Shown: piece after piece, positions 4,528 to 15,444 of the stretch | Position numbering within the stretch: position 1 is the first letter of the stretch | How the letters are laid out: each line of letters begins with the position of its first letter | Source: a virus | Taxonomy: Duplodnaviria > Heunggongvirae > Uroviricota > Caudoviricetes | IMG/VR virus record: IMGVR_UViG_2778261122_000007 | Coordinates: 1-29,245 of that record | Length of the DNA: 29,245 bases | Direction: 5' to 3' (one strand) | The notes under the pieces: generated by a model | Told to the model about the DNA's origin: nothing | Database searches by the model: none | The model's input: the letters and a program-made list of their open reading frames with translations, nothing else | Program-made: the position numbers and the translations under genes

Positions 4528-5034
4528 TTATTTCTTTGCAGCCAGAATCAGGCCGTCAAGCCACTCCTGGTGACCATTGAGCATTGGGTTCGGACGAGTA
4601 TTTGCCAGGTCTTTTGCTGGAACTCCGTTCTGCGTTTCCTGTGTCAGGATACGGAGTCTGTTACCCGAGAGTTCCTCCAGTAGCCACGCATGATGAACAT
4701 CTAGGCGTTGTACAGTATCTTTTTCACCGGACCATCCGTGCCATGCCAAACGAGCAGGTTTACCTTCAGTAGGTGGAATAAATTCCACGACCTGAGCTTC
4801 AACCGGAAATCCAAATGTGCTGAAGTAAAAGCGCACGCCATTTTCCAGCTCCGGACCTTTATTGTTATAAAAGCGCACATCTGCTGAATTTTTATAGTAT
4901 TCCGGCCATAGTAATGGCTGACTAAGGAGTGGCCAAACATCATTGATGTTCAGACCGGAGATGATCATTTCATTAGACACAAAGTTATCAGTAAATCCCG
5001 GAACAAAGCCTTCTGGCCAGTGAATAGCGTTCAT
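4528..5034 (-). CDS. SRPBCC (Bet v1-like / polyketide cyclase-like) family protein
   Basis: 168 aa from ATG at 5034 (GGAGG Shine-Dalgarno on the reverse strand; the track ORF starts at TTG 5046); aromatic-rich composition typical of SRPBCC ligand-binding folds; family assigned by recognition, not by search. Confidence 0.7.
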   Translation of the reverse strand: MNAIHWPEGFVPGFTDNFVSNEMIISGLNINDVWPLLSQPLLWPEYYKNSADVRFYNNKGPELENGVRFYFSTFGFPVEAQVVEFIPPTEGKPARLAWHGWSGEKDTVQRLDVHHAWLLEELSGNRLRILTQETQNGVPAKDLANTRPNPMLNGHQEWLDGLILAAKK

Positions 5035-5169
5035 AAATGCCTCCAATTGCGGTAGTTAATTGTACTGGGTTTGCTGCGTTACGACCGCAACACGATGGCA
5101 GTGATTATTAGCGCAATGAAGTTATAAGGCGAATTATGATTACTTATAATCTTAATAAGATAAATTATA

Positions 5170-6078
5170 TCAGGAGCCAGTATCTTGGCTAACTTCTACG
5201 CATAAAGCCCGAATCCACTGATGGCTAGGGTCACGATGAGTTCGTTCATGCCAGGCCATACTCTTGGTAAAGCCCGGAACTTTCAGGGGCAAAGGGAGTA
5301 TGATTAGATCGTTGTTAGTCAGGACCATGCGGTGGGGGACAACAGCGATCATATCAGTCACTTGCAATATATCAGGAACTACTTGAAAACTATTAACTGA
5401 CATGCCTACTCGTCGTGTCAGACTGAGCTTAGCCAGTGCTTCATCTGTAACACCGGAGAAGCTACCTTCTGAAGACACCAGAATATGTTCCTGTTTGCAA
5501 AATTGTTCGAGAGTCATTTCTGAATTCGCTGACAACGGATGATTCCGTCGTGCTATGCAAACATAATCTTCTTCATAAAGTGCTCTGCCGTGCAGCTCTC
5601 CGGGAGTGGTTTGTGGTGTTACCAAAGCCAGATCAACTTCTCCCTGAGATAACTGCTGATATATTCGTTTATTGTCTACAGGCCGCACAGAGATTTTAAT
5701 ATTCGGTGCTCGATGTTTCAGCGCAGCCATCAATGGGACAACAACAGCCTTAACTGCATAGTCCGTTGCGACAATGGTATAAGTTAGTTCTGCCGTCATG
5801 GGGTCAAATTTACTTGGTTTCAGCAGAATCGCGATATCGGTGAGAATTTGTTTTACCGGCATAGCAAGCTCTTTGGCACGTAGTGTGGGAACCATACCGT
5901 GACTGGTGCGAACAAAGAGAGGATCGCAAAAATAATCACGTAATCGAATAAGCATGCCACTGACAGCGGGCTGCGTCAGGGAGAGTCGCTGCGCAGCCCG
6001 AGTCACGCTTCCCTCATCCATTAACGCATCAAAGGTCTTAAGTAAGTTAAGGTCGAGGGTTTTGATATCATTTTTCAT
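5170..6078 (-). CDS. LysR-family transcriptional regulator
   Basis: 302 aa; canonical LysR N-terminal HTH (LNLLKTFDALMDEGSVTRAAQRLSLTQPAVSGMLIRLRDYF) followed by a substrate-binding domain. Confidence 0.9.
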   Translation of the reverse strand: MKNDIKTLDLNLLKTFDALMDEGSVTRAAQRLSLTQPAVSGMLIRLRDYFCDPLFVRTSHGMVPTLRAKELAMPVKQILTDIAILLKPSKFDPMTAELTYTIVATDYAVKAVVVPLMAALKHRAPNIKISVRPVDNKRIYQQLSQGEVDLALVTPQTTPGELHGRALYEEDYVCIARRNHPLSANSEMTLEQFCKQEHILVSSEGSFSGVTDEALAKLSLTRRVGMSVNSFQVVPDILQVTDMIAVVPHRMVLTNNDLIILPLPLKVPGFTKSMAWHERTHRDPSHQWIRALCVEVSQDTGS

Positions 6079-6499: not shown

Positions 6500-6653
6500 T
6501 TTCATATTGGCGAGGTAACGGTAGTTAAGTAGAATTGCTGCGGGTGCTTGAGGCTATCTGCCTCGGGCATGAACACCAACGGCAGATAGAGAAAAGCCCC
6601 AGTTAACATTACGCGTCCTGCAAGACGTTTAACATTAATCTGAGGCCATATCT

Positions 6654-6713
6654 ATGCGACACATAGAGATTAGCCTCTTACGGACCGAAAGGTCAAGGAG
6701 AAGCAGGCTATGA
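6654..6713 (+). CDS. mok-like leader ORF (19 codons) translationally coupled to hok
   Basis: ATG 6654 to TGA 6711-6713; the stop overlaps the hok start (ctATGa). Classic mok is longer, so this is an inference. Confidence 0.3.
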   Translation: MRHIEISLLRTERSRRSRL

Positions 6714-6865
6714 AGCAGCAAAAGGCGATGCTAATCGCCCTGATCGTCATCTGTTTAACCGTCATAGTGACGGCACTGGTAACGAGGAAAGACCTCTGCG
6801 AGGTACGAATCCGAACCGGCCAGACGGAGGTCGCTGTCTTCACAGCTTACGAACCTGAGGAGTAA
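6710..6865 (+). CDS. hok: Hok/Gef-family type I toxin (51 aa), HokD/RelF-like
   Basis: Not in the ORF track. Translation MKQQKAMLIALIVICLTVIVTALVTRKDLCEVRIRTGQTEVAVFTAYEPEE has the Hok signature (TM helix, TRK.LCE.R motif, conserved Cys); matches HokD as I recall it; structured leader upstream and terminator downstream. Confidence 0.85.
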   Translation: MKQQKAMLIALIVICLTVIVTALVTRKDLCEVRIRTGQTEVAVFTAYEPEE

Positions 6866-6933
6866 GAGACCAGGCGGGGGAGAAATCCCTCGCCACCTCT
6901 GATGTGTCAGGCATCCTCAACGCACCCGCACTT

Positions 6934-6960
6934 AACCCGCTTCGGCGGGTTTTGTTTTTT
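6934..6960 (+). terminator. rho-independent terminator downstream of hok
   Basis: AACCCGC-TTCG-GCGGGTT hairpin followed by TTTGTTTTTT. Confidence 0.7.
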
Positions 6961-7032: not shown

Positions 7033-7311
7033 ATGGCGCGCGATACCAAATTACACAATTCTAATGATTCTGCCGTCTTTGCCAGCAGGTGCGGACGGCG
7101 TTTTCACGCATTCAAATCAGACTGGTTCCAGCATCCTCCATGCACTGAAGAGCAGGCTGAATGGATAATTCAGTGTTACCGCAGGCGTGGATACGAGGTT
7201 AAGAAAGCTCTTAGTCTCGACTATCGTCACTGGATAATCTCAGTCAGACTCCCTTACTCCGAACGCCCACCGCGTCCGTCCCGCACATTCCAGCAACGGA
7301 TTTGGAGGTAA
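7033..7311 (+). CDS. hypothetical protein (92 aa), rem-like by position between hok and the DUF968 gene
   Basis: The track ORF 6904-7311 spans the hok terminator, so the first ATG after it (7033) is used; the hok-rem-ydfU-Q order is as I recall it for Qin. Start and identity are uncertain. Confidence 0.4.
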   Translation: MARDTKLHNSNDSAVFASRCGRRFHAFKSDWFQHPPCTEEQAEWIIQCYRRRGYEVKKALSLDYRHWIISVRLPYSERPPRPSRTFQQRIWR

Positions 7312-7312
7312 C

Positions 7313-8362
7313 GTGCGGGTATTACTTCGACCTGTTCTGGTACCGGAACTCGGGCTGGTGGTCCTTAAGCCAGGTCGTGAATCCATGCAGGTATTTCACA
7401 ATCCTCGAGTGCTGGTGGAGCCGGAACCGAAAAGCATGTGCGGCCTGCCATCCGGAGTCGTCCCTGCCGTTCGCCAGCCGCTGGCGGAGGATAAATCATT
7501 ACTGCCATTTTTCAGCGATGAGCGGGTGATTCGTGCTGCTGGCGGCGCTGGGGCACTGTCTGACTGGCTGTTGCGTCATGTCAAATCCTGCCAGTGGCCT
7601 CATGGTGACTATCATCACAGTGAAATCGTCATACATCGTTACGGTACCGGCGCGATGGTGTTGTGCTGGCACTGCGACAACCAGCTGCGTGACCAGACAT
7701 CCGAATCACTCGAGCAACTTGCTCATCAAAATCTGTCAGCATGGATGATTGACGTCATACGCCATGCAATGAATGGCACGCAGGAGAGGGAGTTATCGCT
7801 GGCTGAATTATCCTGGTGGGCGGTCTGCAATCAAGTGGCGGACGCGCTTCCGGAGGCAGTATTACGTCGTTCTCTGGGGTTACGTGCGGAAAAAATCCGC
7901 TCAATGTACCGTGAAAGCGACATCGTACCGGGAGAGCAGACCGCCACCAGCATACTGAAGCAGCGCACAAAAAATCTTGCGCCGTTGCTTCACACCCACC
8001 AGCCACAGAACCCAGCACAGGAAAAGCAGGTGGTCAGCATTGCCGTTGATCCGGAGTCTCCGGAATCTTTCATGAGGCGACCTAAACGTCGCCGTTGGGT
8101 AAATGAGAAATATACGCGCTGGGTGAAGACACAGCCGTGTGCGTGTTGTGGTCAACCAGCCGACGATCCCCATCACCTGATTGGTCACGGTCAGGGAGGG
8201 ATGGGAACAAAGGCCCACGATATTTTCACGCTACCGTTGTGCCGGGAACATCACAACGAACTTCATGCGGATCCGCTGGCGTTCGAAGAAAAGCATGGTT
8301 CTCAGGTTGATTTAATTTTTCGTTTTCTTGATCACGCCTTTGCAACCGGCGTGCTTGGGTAA
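7313..8362 (+). CDS. DUF968-family prophage protein (YdfU-like) with a C-terminal Cys/His cluster
   Basis: 349 aa; GTG 7313 preceded by GGAGG at 7304-7308; C-terminus CACCGQPADDPHHLIGHGQGGMGTKAHDIFTLPLCREHHNELH resembles an HNH/zinc-binding motif; position just upstream of rusA and Q. Confidence 0.7.
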   Translation: MRVLLRPVLVPELGLVVLKPGRESMQVFHNPRVLVEPEPKSMCGLPSGVVPAVRQPLAEDKSLLPFFSDERVIRAAGGAGALSDWLLRHVKSCQWPHGDYHHSEIVIHRYGTGAMVLCWHCDNQLRDQTSESLEQLAHQNLSAWMIDVIRHAMNGTQERELSLAELSWWAVCNQVADALPEAVLRRSLGLRAEKIRSMYRESDIVPGEQTATSILKQRTKNLAPLLHTHQPQNPAQEKQVVSIAVDPESPESFMRRPKRRRWVNEKYTRWVKTQPCACCGQPADDPHHLIGHGQGGMGTKAHDIFTLPLCREHHNELHADPLAFEEKHGSQVDLIFRFLDHAFATGVLG

Positions 8363-8374
8363 AAGAGGTTACTG

Positions 8375-8734
8375 ATGCGTATAGAGTTTGTTTTGCCTTA
8401 TCCGCCGACGGTGAATACTTACTGGCGACGTCGTGGCAGCACATATTTTGTATCAAAAGTCGGTGAGTGTTATCGCCGTGATGTGGCGCTTATTGTTCGC
8501 CAGCAGCGGCTGAAATTAAAACTGTCCGGAAGGCTGGCGATAAAGATTATTGCAGAGCCACCGGATAAGCGCCGTCGTGACCTGGACAATATCCTGAAAG
8601 CACCACTGGATGCGCTGACGCATGCCGGACTACTCATAGACGACGAGCAGTTTGATGAAATCAATATTGTGCGCGGTCAGCTCGTTCCTGGTGGGCGGCT
8701 GGGGATAAAAATCACAGAACTGGAGTGCGCATGA
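8375..8734 (+). CDS. rusA: RusA Holliday-junction resolvase
   Basis: 119 aa; DKRRRDLDN motif and overall similarity to E. coli RusA; located in the nin-like region before Q. Confidence 0.9.
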   Translation: MRIEFVLPYPPTVNTYWRRRGSTYFVSKVGECYRRDVALIVRQQRLKLKLSGRLAIKIIAEPPDKRRRDLDNILKAPLDALTHAGLLIDDEQFDEINIVRGQLVPGGRLGIKITELECA

Positions 8735-9420
8735 ATAACCAGTATTTACAGTTTGTGCGTGAGCAGCTCATTATCGCCACCGCTGATTTGAGTGGGGCAA
8801 CAAAAGGTCAGCTTGAAGTCTGGCAGGAGAATGCCATGTTCGATACAGGGCGTTACAGGCGAAAAAAAATCCGGTACCGCGATGAAGTGACTGGAAAAAT
8901 GATAACGCGGGATAATCCACCAATCCCGGGAAAGCAATCGCTGGCGAAGGGGACGTCAATTCCTCTGGTCAGTCCGGTTGAGTTTTCGACATCATCGTGG
9001 CGGCGGGCTGTTCTGTCTCTTGAAGAACATCATAAAGCCTGGTTGTTATGGTGTTACAGCGGGAGTATTTGTTGGGAATATCAGATCGCGATAACACAGT
9101 GGGCGTGGAATGAATTTAATACTCAATCCGGTACCAGAAAAATTGCAGGGAAAACGCAGGAACGCCTGAAAAAATTAATCTGGCTGGCGGCGCAGGCAGT
9201 AAAAGCAGAACTTTTAGATGGGGAAGGTTATGAATACCAGGAGCTGGCATTACTGGCGGGAGTGACAACTAAAAACTGGTCCAAAACATTTACTCGTCAC
9301 TGGGTTGCAATGAAACACATTTTTCAACGACTGGATAGTGAGGCTTTATTGTTTGTAATGAGAACGCGTTCAAAACAAAAGGCGGCATTTTCAAAGCAAA
9401 GTGTTGCAAAAGTAGATTGA
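8731..9420 (+). CDS. late-gene antiterminator Q-like protein
   Basis: 229 aa from ATG 8731 (overlaps the rusA stop in ATGA; the track starts at GTG 8725); last early gene before the tRNA/lysis region; Q family assigned by position and size, not by a recognised motif. Confidence 0.7.
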   Translation: MNNQYLQFVREQLIIATADLSGATKGQLEVWQENAMFDTGRYRRKKIRYRDEVTGKMITRDNPPIPGKQSLAKGTSIPLVSPVEFSTSSWRRAVLSLEEHHKAWLLWCYSGSICWEYQIAITQWAWNEFNTQSGTRKIAGKTQERLKKLIWLAAQAVKAELLDGEGYEYQELALLAGVTTKNWSKTFTRHWVAMKHIFQRLDSEALLFVMRTRSKQKAAFSKQSVAKVD

Positions 9421-9630: not shown

Positions 9631-9706
9631 GGCCCTTTAGCTCAGTGGTGAGAGCGAGCGACTCATAATCGCCAGGTCGCTGGTTCAAATCCAGCAAGGG
9701 CCACCA
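9631..9706 (+). tRNA. tRNA with CAU anticodon, Ile2 (lysidine) type, ileX/ileZ-like
   Basis: Manual cloverleaf: acceptor GGCCCTT/AAGGGCC, anticodon arm GCGACTCATAATCGC, T-loop TTCAAAT, encoded CCA; very close to my recollection of E. coli ileX. Confidence 0.8.
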
Positions 9707-9707
9707 A

Positions 9708-9784
9708 CCGCCACTAGCTCATCAGGAAAGAGCGTCAACCCTTTAAGTTGAGTGTGCGAGGTTCGAGTCCCCGGTGGCGGTCCA
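9708..9784 (+). tRNA. tRNA-like gene, anticodon loop CCUUUAA (apparent anticodon UUU, Lys); non-canonical C33 and an A-C mismatch in the T-stem
   Basis: Manual fold: acceptor CCGCCAC/GTGGCGG, D-arm GCTC/GAGC, anticodon stem TCAAC/GTTGA, T-loop TTCGAGT, encoded CCA. Identity is uncertain; it could be a degenerate or specialised tRNA. Confidence 0.5.
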
Positions 9785-9786
9785 GT

Positions 9787-9862
<76 letters not shown>

Positions 9863-9865
9863 TAT

Positions 9866-9940
<75 letters not shown>

Positions 9941-12706: not shown

Positions 12707-13057
12707 ATGCCAGCACTAATCCCACGCGCCTGCCGTAAGCGTGGATGTGCAGGTACAACCACAGACAGTTCTGGTTACTGCGATAAACATCGTGGCGAAG
12801 GATGGGTACAGCATCAACGCGGACTGAGCCGCCACCAGCGTGGCTATGGCTCGAAATGGGATGCCATACGTGCGCGCATACTGAAGCGTGATAATCATCT
12901 GTGTCAGAACTGCCTGCGCAATGGCAGAGCCGTTGAAGCCAGAACTGTGGACCACATCATTCCGAAAGCTCATGGTGGCACGGATGCAGACAGTAACCTG
13001 CAGACTCTGTGCTGGCCCTGTCATAAAGCAAAAACAGCGCGCGAACGCATCAATTGA
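12707..13057 (+). CDS. HNH endonuclease (terminase-associated)
   Basis: 116 aa; N-terminal Cys cluster and HNH core (DHIIPKAHGGTDADSNLQTLCWPCH); immediately upstream of the small terminase. Confidence 0.85.
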   Translation: MPALIPRACRKRGCAGTTTDSSGYCDKHRGEGWVQHQRGLSRHQRGYGSKWDAIRARILKRDNHLCQNCLRNGRAVEARTVDHIIPKAHGGTDADSNLQTLCWPCHKAKTARERIN

Positions 13058-13204: not shown

Positions 13205-13687
13205 ATGTCAGGCCCCCCGAAAACCCCGCCACGCCTGCATTTGATACGAGGCAACCCCTCAAAGCGCCCCGTTAAAGACCCCAAAAAAACCGCTAAAAAG
13301 GATGAAAAAGGTCTCCCTAAAATTCCGCAACATTTAGGGTCGCAGGGGAAGTACTGGTTCAGGCGAATGGCGGAAGAACTGAATGCGGAAGGGATCATTT
13401 CTCAGCTTGATGCGCGTGCACTCGAGTTACTGGTGGAAGCCTACACCGAATACCGGCATCACTGCGAAACACTTGATGCTGAGGGGTATACCTACCGCAC
13501 GGAAACGCAGAACGGTGATGTGCTGATTAAGGCACACCCGGCTGCTGCGATGAAGGCGGATGCCTGGAAGCGGATCCGGGCGATGCTTGCAGAGTTTGGT
13601 ATGTCACCGGCAAGCCGGGCTAAAGTAAATACCGCCGGACCGGATGATGTTGATCCGCTGGCGGAGCTTTTAAAAGCGAGAGACTGA
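13205..13687 (+). CDS. terminase small subunit (P27 family-like)
   Basis: 160 aa; basic N-terminus (PKTPPRLHLIRGNPSKRP); immediately precedes and overlaps the large terminase. Confidence 0.8.
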   Translation: MSGPPKTPPRLHLIRGNPSKRPVKDPKKTAKKDEKGLPKIPQHLGSQGKYWFRRMAEELNAEGIISQLDARALELLVEAYTEYRHHCETLDAEGYTYRTETQNGDVLIKAHPAAAMKADAWKRIRAMLAEFGMSPASRAKVNTAGPDDVDPLAELLKARD

Positions 13688-15444
13688 TGGCAAAAGTGGC
13701 TGACGGGATCCGCTACGCCGAACGTGTTGTTGCAGGAGAAATTGTCGCTGGCGAATTTGTCCGTCTGGCCTGCCAGCGTTTTCTTGATGATCTGAAGTAC
13801 GGCGAAGAGCGGGGGATTTATTTCAGTGAATCCCGTGCGCAGCACATCCTGAATTTCTACAAATTTGTGCCCCATGTGAAAGGGGCGCTGGCAGGCCAGC
13901 CCATTGAGTTGATGGACTGGCATGTATTTATCCTCATTAATATTTTTGGTTTTGTCATTCCGCTGGTGAATGAAGAGACCGGGGAAGTTGTCATGCGCAG
14001 CGATGGCAGCGGACGCCCGGTGATGGTGCGCCGGTTCCGGACGGCGTACAACGAAGTCGCCCGTAAAAACGCAAAATCAACCCTGTCATCGGGTATCGGC
14101 CTGTATATGACGGGGGCAGATGGTGAAGGCGGTGCTGAGGTGTATTCAGCCGCAACCACGCGTGACCAGGCCAGAATCGTGTTTGAAGACGCCAAAAATA
14201 TGGTCAGAAAAGCCCGGTCGACACTCGGGCGGTTGTTTGATTTCAACAAGCTGGCGATTTACCAGGAGCAGAGCGCATCAAAATTTGAACCGCTTTCTTC
14301 GGATGCAAACAACCTGGATGGTCTGAACATCCACTGCGCCATTATTGATGAGCTGCATGCACATAAAACCCGCGACGTGTGGGACGTTCTGGAAACGGCA
14401 ACTGGTGCCCGTCTGCAGTCCCTTTTATTTGGTATCACCACGGCTGGCTTTAACAAGGAAGGGATTTGTTACGAGCAACGCGATTACGCCATCAAGGTAT
14501 TGCGAGGCTATAACAGCGACGTGGAGGGCGCGGTAAAAGACGACTCCTACTTTGCGATTATTTACACCCTCGATGAGGGAGATGATCCGTTTGATGAAAC
14601 GGTCTGGCAGAAAGCGAATCCCGGCCTGGGCATCTGTAAACGCTGGGATGATCTGCGTCGTCTGGCGAAAAAGGCGAAGGAGCAGGTCTCGGCGCGGGTG
14701 AATTTTTTCACAAAACACATGAATGTGTGGGTCACTGCCGAGTCTGCCTGGATGGACATGATTAAGTGGGAGAAATGCGAATATATTGCCCCACGACATG
14801 AGCTGAAAACGTATCCCATGTGGGTCGGCGTTGACCTTGCTCATAAGATTGATATCTGTGCGGCGGCAAAACTCTGGCGAACGGATAACGGGCATGTTCA
14901 TGCCGATTTTAAATTCTGGCTCCCGGAAGGACGGCTGGAACGATGCTCGCGGCAGCAGGCAGAACTTTACCGGAAGTGGGCGGAGATGGATAAGCTGATT
15001 CTGACGGATGGTGATGTTATCGATCATGCTCAGATAAAAAGTGACTTACTGGAATGGATTGGCGGTGAAAACCTGAGGGAACTGGGATTTGACCCGTGGA
15101 GCGCGATGCAGTTCAGCCTGGCACTGGCTGAAGAAGGGATACCGCTGGTGGAGGTTCCGCAGACGGTTCGCAATCTGTCAGAGGCCATGAAGGAAACGGA
15201 ATCACTGGTCTATGCCGGGCGTTTCCATCACAGCAATCATCCGGTCATGAACTGGATGATGTCTAACGTTACGGTAAAACCGGACAAAAACGACAATATC
15301 TTCCCGAATAAATCCACGCCGGAAGCCAAAATCGACGGCCCTGTTGCGATGTTTACAGCAATGAGCCGGATGCTGGTCAATAGTGGTGAACCGGAGCCGG
15401 ATCTGTCTGAACATCTGGTCAGCGTGGGCATCCGCTCACTTTAA
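13687..15444 (+). CDS. terminase large subunit
   Basis: 585 aa; ATPase region followed by a nuclease region (IIDELH Walker B-like); position and size. Confidence 0.9.

Follow-up and report, generated by a model that had tools for sequence, protein, structure and literature searches.

A YdfU (DUF968) family protein of a lambdoid prophage combines a predicted C-terminal HNH nuclease module with a second, N-terminal Cys/His cluster

We analyzed the viral DNA stretch IMGVR_UViG_2778261122_000007 (29,245 nucleotides, positions 1 to 29,245 of the IMG/VR record, referred to here as the window) with a focus on the gene located at positions 7313 to 8362 of the plus strand, which encodes a member of the YdfU (DUF968) family. 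The C-terminal part of this protein exhibits the features of an HNH, or His-Me finger, module, and we are highly confident that both the fold and an intact site are present. With moderate confidence, we infer that YdfU is an active nuclease serving phage DNA metabolism, most likely as a recombination- or replication-associated nickase. The HNH assignment of DUF968 and YdfU is already known from a 2017 classification and from the name of PHROG 96. An HNH-like C terminus in a DUF968 protein is by itself ordinary, since it is found in the literature and in the PHROGs.

According to the list of open reading frames (ORFs) and its translation, the gene starts with GTG and encodes 349 amino acids followed by a stop codon. 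A Shine-Dalgarno sequence, GGAGG, can be read directly at 7304 to 7308 (plus strand), 4 nucleotides (nt) upstream of the start codon. The choice of start residue is supported by homologues of 26 to 57% identity, which begin at the same residue. In a 99.4%-identical Escherichia coli chromosome, where the prophage is lambdoid and inserted beside tRNA-Ser/mtfA, RefSeq annotates an ORF at identical coordinates as "DUF968 domain-containing protein." The Pfam model DUF968 (PF06147) was matched along its full length by residues 160 to 346, with 261.4 bits compared to a gathering cutoff of 27.8 (E = 5.3e-78), and PHROG 96, "HNH endonuclease," was matched over the full length of the protein (E = 1.4e-176). 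The alignment with YdfU of E. coli K-12 was free of gaps, and 298 of 349 residues (85%) were identical. The selective constraint described below adds to this evidence. An earlier note, which was made from the DNA letters alone, had called a DUF968-family ORF at this location, and both the coordinates and the family proved correct. Among the YdfU (DUF968) genes of lambdoid prophages, the window gene is ordinary and typical. Scans of the protein against NCBIfam and PADLOC returned nothing meaningful.

The HNH module spans residues 251 to 349 (8063 to 8359, plus strand) and opens with a basic RRPKRRRW stretch, ahead of the zinc ligands. The Cys/His string CACCGQ...NELH, read directly from the sequence at residues 276 to 318 (8138 to 8266, plus strand), follows the classical pattern CxxC...HH...(N/D)...Cxx(C/H)H...H. 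The earlier note had assigned this string to the last roughly 60 residues. The string is present, but it lies 74 to 32 residues from the C terminus, so that the wording was slightly loose. Conservation was evaluated in 32 full-length homologues of 26 to 86% identity, obtained by searching 1.8 billion cluster representatives. The zinc ligands C276, C279, and C310 were conserved in 32, 26, and 27 homologues, respectively, and position 313, a histidine in the window protein, was Cys or His in 26. The putative general base H288 was retained in 29, and H314 and H318 of the active site were retained in 28 each, whereas D303 was invariant (32/32). Conservation of this Cys/His cluster is far above chance. 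The predicted structural zinc site, CxxC...Cxx(C/H), corresponds to that of the zinc-finger subclass of His-Me finger proteins. The histidine on the first strand, as the candidate general base, and the Asn/Asp and His residues of the putative metal site likewise match the His-Me finger arrangement.

An AlphaFold2 (AF2) model, built on the alignment of the 32 homologues, had a mean predicted local distance difference test (pLDDT) score of 87 and placed the motif on strands 285 to 288 and 306 to 309 and on helix 311 to 319, which is the predicted beta-beta-alpha-metal fold of the His-Me finger group. For comparison with known nucleases, the YdfU family profile was aligned to single sequences using hhalign. 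This resulted in matches to Gp16 of Staphylococcus phage PhiNM1 (E = 4.3e-8; 95% probability, 155 columns), YbcO (E = 6.5e-6; 75 columns), and P1 Ref (E = 1.9e-5; 56 columns). In the first of these, C148, H157, C181, H184, H185, and H189 of Gp16 are paired with C279, H288, C310, H313, H314, and H318 of YdfU at nearly identical spacing. Seventeen of the 32 diverse YdfU homologues matched the Pfam family HNHc_6 at E ≤ 0.01. The suggestion of an HNH or treble-clef module in the earlier note was supported by the AF2 model, PHROG 96, and the profile matches to Gp16, YbcO, and Ref. A lack of structural similarity to HNH and treble-clef folds would have spoken against it, and structure prediction as well as profile comparison revealed that such similarity is present.

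The ratio of nonsynonymous to synonymous substitution rates (dN/dS) was calculated between the window gene and 65 distinct gap-free alleles; all of these comparisons share the window sequence and are hence not independent. Values of 0.11 for the whole gene, 0.10 for the N-terminal domain, 0.5 to 0.67 for the linker, and 0.05 for the HNH module were obtained. Purifying selection on YdfU is strong, and the HNH module is its most constrained part. Together with the retention of H288, D303, H314, and H318 in 28 to 32 of the homologues, this constraint argues against the possibility that YdfU is a noncatalytic zinc-finger protein whose clusters merely bind DNA or protein, for example as a regulator or as an accessory factor of Q or RusA. 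We consider such a role very unlikely, although several observations would be compatible with it. A few full-length homologues have lost the catalytic histidines, and the N-terminal cluster described below is devoid of a conserved catalytic histidine. In Gp16, the phenotypes of zinc-site mutants were reported to be stronger than those of active-site mutants (PMC12817073). Moreover, ydfU is nearly always located directly upstream of Q, and one family member has been termed a "phage transcriptional regulator" (PMC5714182). The downstream Q genes, however, derive from several unrelated families, which indicates position rather than partnership.

A number of results weigh against YdfU being an active, Gp16- or Ref-like nuclease. 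Loss of the catalytic histidines was observed in homologues P0207, P0221, and P0250, and loss of zinc cysteines was observed in a few homologues. The window protein itself scored below the cutoffs of HNHc_6 (PF16784; 22.2 bits versus 26.6, E = 1.2e-4, residues 271 to 319 only) and RecA_dep_nuc (PF16786; 14.1 bits versus 26.9). When the full-length two-domain model was compared to the PDB using Foldseek, nothing better than E = 0.5 was found; the short top matches were HNH domains, though nonsignificant. P1 Ref was the top structural match for YdfU despite the subthreshold RecA_dep_nuc score. The N-terminal domain is unrelated to both the Orf/NinB-like domain of Gp16 and the disordered basic N terminus of Ref, and the partner or substrate specificity of YdfU may therefore differ from that of these two proteins. 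Our literature search found no experiment with YdfU or with any other DUF968 protein from enterobacteria. Sequence searches of the PDB were uninformative: whether started from the whole protein, its C-terminal 100 residues, or the family profile, they yielded only chance-level zinc fingers and the HNH domain of IscB at E = 1.1. The YbcO family DUF1364 (PF07102) gave no match at E ≤ 1 to the window protein, which has 349 residues compared to the approximately 95 of the stand-alone HNH.

Upstream of the HNH module, the AF2 secondary structure (pLDDT of 80 to 96) delimits an N-terminal beta/alpha subdomain at residues 1 to 90 (7313 to 7582, plus strand). It is followed by the second Cys/His cluster at residues 93 to 125 (7589 to 7687, plus strand) and by a helical region at residues 131 to 219 (7703 to 7969, plus strand), which was defined by alignment, AF2, and Pfam and carries a conserved LSxxELxWWAV...LP motif. 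No Pfam family was found for the N-terminal domain. A variable, disordered linker at residues 226 to 250 (7988 to 8062, plus strand) was recognized from pLDDT, dN/dS, and the ends of phage matches; with pLDDT values below 50 at residues 228 to 242, it divides the protein into two folded parts. The beta/alpha subdomain is not found in relatives of reduced length (for example, P0220 and P0240). Relatives of 264 to 279 residues are devoid of approximately the first 80 residues and retain the helical region together with the second cluster and the HNH module. These three parts make up the conserved core.

The linker coincides with a point of exchange between phages. Many phage alleles matched only nt 1 to 751 of ydfU, at 90 to 96% identity. 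Alleles sharing this portion, for instance those of Stx2a (Shiga toxin)-converting phages, encode a protein of 352 residues with an alternative C terminus that contains a CCCC zinc site and passes the HNHc_6 threshold. A mosaic breakpoint is located where the HNH module begins (window position 8063, approximately nt 751 and residue 250). Phage HNH genes are often mobile, and a mosaic C-terminal module in a gene that sits at a module boundary beside differing Q types would be in line with a selfish homing-type endonuclease, which cuts phages that do not carry it and spreads by repair. We see only a slight chance that this applies to ydfU: its large N-terminal domain is conserved, its operon position is fixed with tight or overlapping spacing, purifying selection extends over its whole length, and the closest relatives, Ref, Gp16, and YbcO, are not homing enzymes. 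Proteins in which the YdfU N terminus is fused to tail-tip, tail-fiber, portal, or Q domains (P0145, P0190, P0191, P0125, P0152, and P0039) were considered as candidates for a mobile N-terminal domain and rejected. They more likely represent chimeras that arose by deletion, or read-through products, within prophages undergoing decay, similar to the ones annotated in the reference genome. Proteins consisting of the YdfU N-terminal domain only are either truncated or run into frameshifted junk sequence.

The second Cys/His cluster (C93, H101, C118, and C121, followed by D122-N123) is previously unreported and was not flagged in the earlier note. Among the 32 homologues, C93 and C118 were present in all, position 101 was Cys or His in 30, and position 121 was His or Cys in every one. 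The residues that follow the ligands were also retained (W119 in 31 and D122 in 30). Conservation at C93, H101, C118, and C121 is stricter than at the C-terminal zinc site. Both AF2 models positioned this putative structural zinc site on a hairpin (residues 105 to 110 and 113 to 118) with a subsequent helix (119 to 125), a predicted arrangement of the treble-clef or beta-beta-alpha type whose ligand topology equals that of the HNH module. Position 102, which would correspond to the general base, is variable, and the N-terminal module is therefore not expected to be catalytic. When the two modules were compared by hhalign, they aligned in register at a nonsignificant E value of 0.16, and Pfam found no match on the N-terminal cluster. 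For these two reasons, we propose a degenerate duplicated His-Me finger as a hypothesis only. Extending it, YdfU would be a tandem His-Me finger protein in which a degenerate, zinc-only N-terminal copy mediates recognition and the active C-terminal copy is a nickase that depends on RecA or on recombination intermediates. This more elaborate reading strikes us as somewhat unlikely. If it was true, YdfU would be a widespread, unrecognized prophage factor with an influence on recombination, on SOS and antibiotic responses, and on prophage mosaicism; antibiotic responses are included because P1 Ref has such an effect for ciprofloxacin.

The genomic neighborhood was evaluated in the window and in two sets of related loci. 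In the window, ydfU is directly preceded by an ORF encoding a basic protein of 92 amino acids (7033 to 7311, plus strand; phrog_1212 of unknown function, no Pfam family). Because the TAA of this ORF (7309 to 7311) finishes just 1 nt short of the ydfU GTG, the two genes are probably translationally coupled. Twelve nucleotides downstream of ydfU, the gene for the Holliday junction resolvase RusA follows (8375 to 8734, plus strand; Pfam RusA, E = 9e-15), and its end is overlapped by the Q antiterminator gene (8725 to 9420, plus strand; Pfam Phage_antiter_Q, E = 6e-91). The first set comprised 80 close relatives in IMG/VR, of which 75 loci were evaluable for RusA and Q. RusA was encoded downstream of ydfU in 63 of these and Q directly downstream in 12. 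The second, species-level set contained 80 loci, one genome per species, essentially all from Enterobacterales. Here, a Q antiterminator gene, representing at least four Pfam types, was located directly downstream of ydfU in at least 61 of 76 loci, whereas RusA was found downstream in 3 of 76 and upstream in 17 of 78. Antirepressors of the Rha/ANT or KilA-N type were encoded upstream in 42 species-level loci. The 92-amino-acid ORF preceded ydfU in 78 of 78 close relatives compared to 7 of 78 species-level loci, and its product is possibly an E. coli-clade-specific partner or modulator of YdfU.

The constant feature of ydfU is that it closes the early nin operon, ahead of Q; RusA is frequent but not obligatory. 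The earlier note had emphasized adjacency to RusA in a nin-like region, and this holds true for the window and the E. coli clade but not across species, where Q is the constant neighbor. Since RusA adjacency is clade specific, there is no need to assume a dedicated YdfU-RusA partnership, which is a further point against a nuclease that acts jointly with RusA. Downstream of hok, a T-run accompanies a terminator-like hairpin (6934 to 6951), suggesting that ydfU is expressed by antiterminated read-through. The hok gene (ORF at 6710 to 6865) and sok (6542 to 6712; Rfam match with 101 bits) form a type I toxin-antitoxin locus at 6542 to 6951, immediately upstream of the block that consists of the 92-amino-acid ORF, ydfU, rusA, and Q.

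Gene position also bears on a possible role in packaging. As an HNH-module protein encoded by a lambdoid prophage of the cos type, YdfU could be a terminase-associated HNH protein like HK97 gp74. The window, however, harbors a separate canonical HNH gene at 12707 to 13057 (plus strand; Pfam HNH PF01844, E = 7e-17), directly upstream of the genes for the small (13205 to 13687) and large (13687 to 15444) terminase subunits. Its product is the packaging-type HNH protein of this prophage and is distinct from YdfU, which has no PF01844 match and is encoded in the early region, at a distance of approximately 5 kb, with Q and the lysis genes lying in between. A packaging role of YdfU is effectively refuted by its gene position.

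Two further groups of genes were noted in this part of the window. Four tRNA genes are located between Q and the lysis genes at 9631 to 9940 (plus strand), with the anticodon CAT (Met according to ARAGORN and tRNA-Ile according to RefSeq), Lys-TTT, Thr-TGT, and Gly-TCC. A two-gene insert on the minus strand (4528 to 6078), flanked by the replication genes and hok, comprises a gene for a LysR-family regulator (5170 to 6078) and one that RefSeq names "polyketide cyclase" (4528 to 5046). YnfL/HusR is an activator of rusA in K-12 (PMC12844172). The LysR-family regulator of the window was considered as an orthologue of YnfL/HusR and rejected, its 22% identity representing generic LysR similarity.

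Taken as a phage recombination or replication nuclease, YdfU may function as follows. It would be made as a delayed-early protein from the end of the nin operon just before Q. In the folded protein, C276, C279, C310, and H313 are predicted to hold a structural zinc ion, H288, which terminates the first strand, would serve as the general base, and D303, H314, and H318 would organize the catalytic metal. The N-terminal approximately 220 residues, the zinc-binding and helical part specific to enterobacterial YdfU, could recognize DNA, a substrate, or a partner, and the C-terminal approximately 100 residues would nick or cut recombination or replication intermediates, possibly aided by RecA, as is the case for P1 Ref and PhiNM1 Gp16. 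Cutting by YdfU might then yield substrates for RusA and for phage or host recombination systems and thereby promote phage replication and recombination. A role in recombination agrees with a published hypothesis (PMC5714182). By analogy to Ref and Gp16, RecA dependence of YdfU specifically is conceivable, but we hold it to be a tentative and, on balance, doubtful component of the mechanism.

Instead of serving phage DNA metabolism, the nuclease might be directed at the host chromosome for host shutoff or at the DNA of rival phages or plasmids for exclusion or counterdefense. Gp16, the closest characterized homologue, causes host growth arrest and nucleoid condensation (PMC12817073), and P1 Ref is reported to raise the lethality of ciprofloxacin for the host (PMC4713147). 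The prevalence of ydfU could point in the same direction. Matches were detected in 4,545 of 5,426 complete E. coli genomes (approximately 84%), often in several copies and in up to nine places per genome; in 3,546 genomes, at least 80% of the gene was covered. The gene frequently resides in decayed prophages, and its retention could reflect a benefit to the host; it is also present in Stx-converting phages. On the other hand, the only match to a PADLOC defense model was PglZ with 9 bits (E = 0.088), so that no assignment to a defense system was obtained, and no immunity or modification gene was recognized next to ydfU. An early replication and recombination operon beside RusA is the usual site of phage recombination functions. 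We therefore regard a host- or competitor-directed activity as clearly unlikely. YdfU loci of 50 to 86% identity were also encountered in genomes or metagenome-assembled genomes labeled Veillonella, Geobacteraceae, Caulobacter, Vagococcus, and Actinomycetes (L089, L093, L109, L142, and L147); these labels probably result from binning or contamination with enterobacterial prophage contigs.

As ydfU is among the commonest uncharacterized prophage genes of E. coli, its function is of broader relevance. If YdfU is a RecA-linked nickase, it may help to explain recombination-dependent replication and mosaicism in lambdoid phages that are devoid of Orf and Rap. It could also affect SOS induction and, hence, the induction of Stx phages, and a function would be supplied for a y-gene of K-12. 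In place of a vague domain of unknown function (DUF), a concrete, testable hypothesis with named catalytic and zinc residues can now be offered.

Previous work provides the framework in which YdfU can be compared to known systems. An HNH zinc-finger extension was described by Curtis et al. in 2014 for proteins that were then classified under DUF968 (PMC4118853). Jablonska et al. (2017) assigned DUF968 and DUF1364 to group 7 of the His-Me finger proteins, naming YdfU and YbcO (3g27), noted RusA, Q, and antirepressor genes as neighbors of DUF968, and proposed a role in recombination (PMC5714182). The family had been described as functionally uncharacterized in the earlier note. This remains accurate for YdfU itself, but the HNH assignment was published in 2017, and the homologue Gp16 was characterized in 2026 (PMC12817073). 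YdfU of K-12 (b1560), encoded by the Qin prophage, conserves every Cys/His ligand of the window protein and shares the neighborhood hok ... ydfU ... Q. The Qin locus differs from the window by a YdfT-type Q that is not separated from ydfU by a rusA gene and by the lack of an annotated 92-amino-acid ORF upstream; otherwise, the protein is the same.

YbcO of DLP12 (PDB 3G27) is a stand-alone HNH module of 96 amino acids without the 250-residue N-terminal part, and it contains AH where YdfU contains HH. Kinship between the two proteins is restricted to the level of the superfamily and group. NinG/Rap of phage lambda, an endonuclease that acts on branched DNA, is not a close relative, as only an 18-column CxxC..H match was obtained (E = 0.006; probability of 6%). 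It is a His-Me finger nuclease whose gene, like ydfU, lies in the nin region a short distance ahead of Q, and it represents a functional analogue with respect to the cleavage of recombination intermediates. The RecA-dependent HNH endonuclease Ref of P1 (PDB 3PLW) differs from YdfU by a shorter hairpin and by the lack of a folded N-terminal domain.

PhiNM1 Gp16 matched the Pfam family HNHc_6 (E = 5e-117) and also exceeded the gathering score of DUF968 (29.1 versus 27.8 bits). It has 223 amino acids and an N-terminal domain that was modeled by the authors as Orf/NinB-like (PMC12817073), whereas YdfU possesses an unrelated N-terminal region of approximately 220 residues with its own Cys/His cluster and does not show the Orf/NinB-like domain of the HNHc_6 type. 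The alignment with Gp16 extended to residue 153 and hinted at kinship between the middle region of YdfU and lambda Orf/NinB; this was not supported, since hhalign found no match to lambda Orf (E = 0.58). The gene contexts are also different, with recombinase-SSB-gp16 in one case and hok-ORF92-ydfU-rusA-Q in the other. The authors report Gp16 to be an early phage protein in which CxxC, CREH, and HH..H motifs are present. According to their results, it binds double-stranded DNA, introduces nicks into plasmids, interacts with RecA and is stimulated by it, and is required for the phage to replicate efficiently, and its zinc-site mutants lose activity (PMC12817073). Both proteins share the CxxC motif, nine residues to the histidine, and the subsequent C-R-E-H-H-x3-H, with LCREHHNE being identical, and gp16, too, is an early gene of a phage that also carries RusA.

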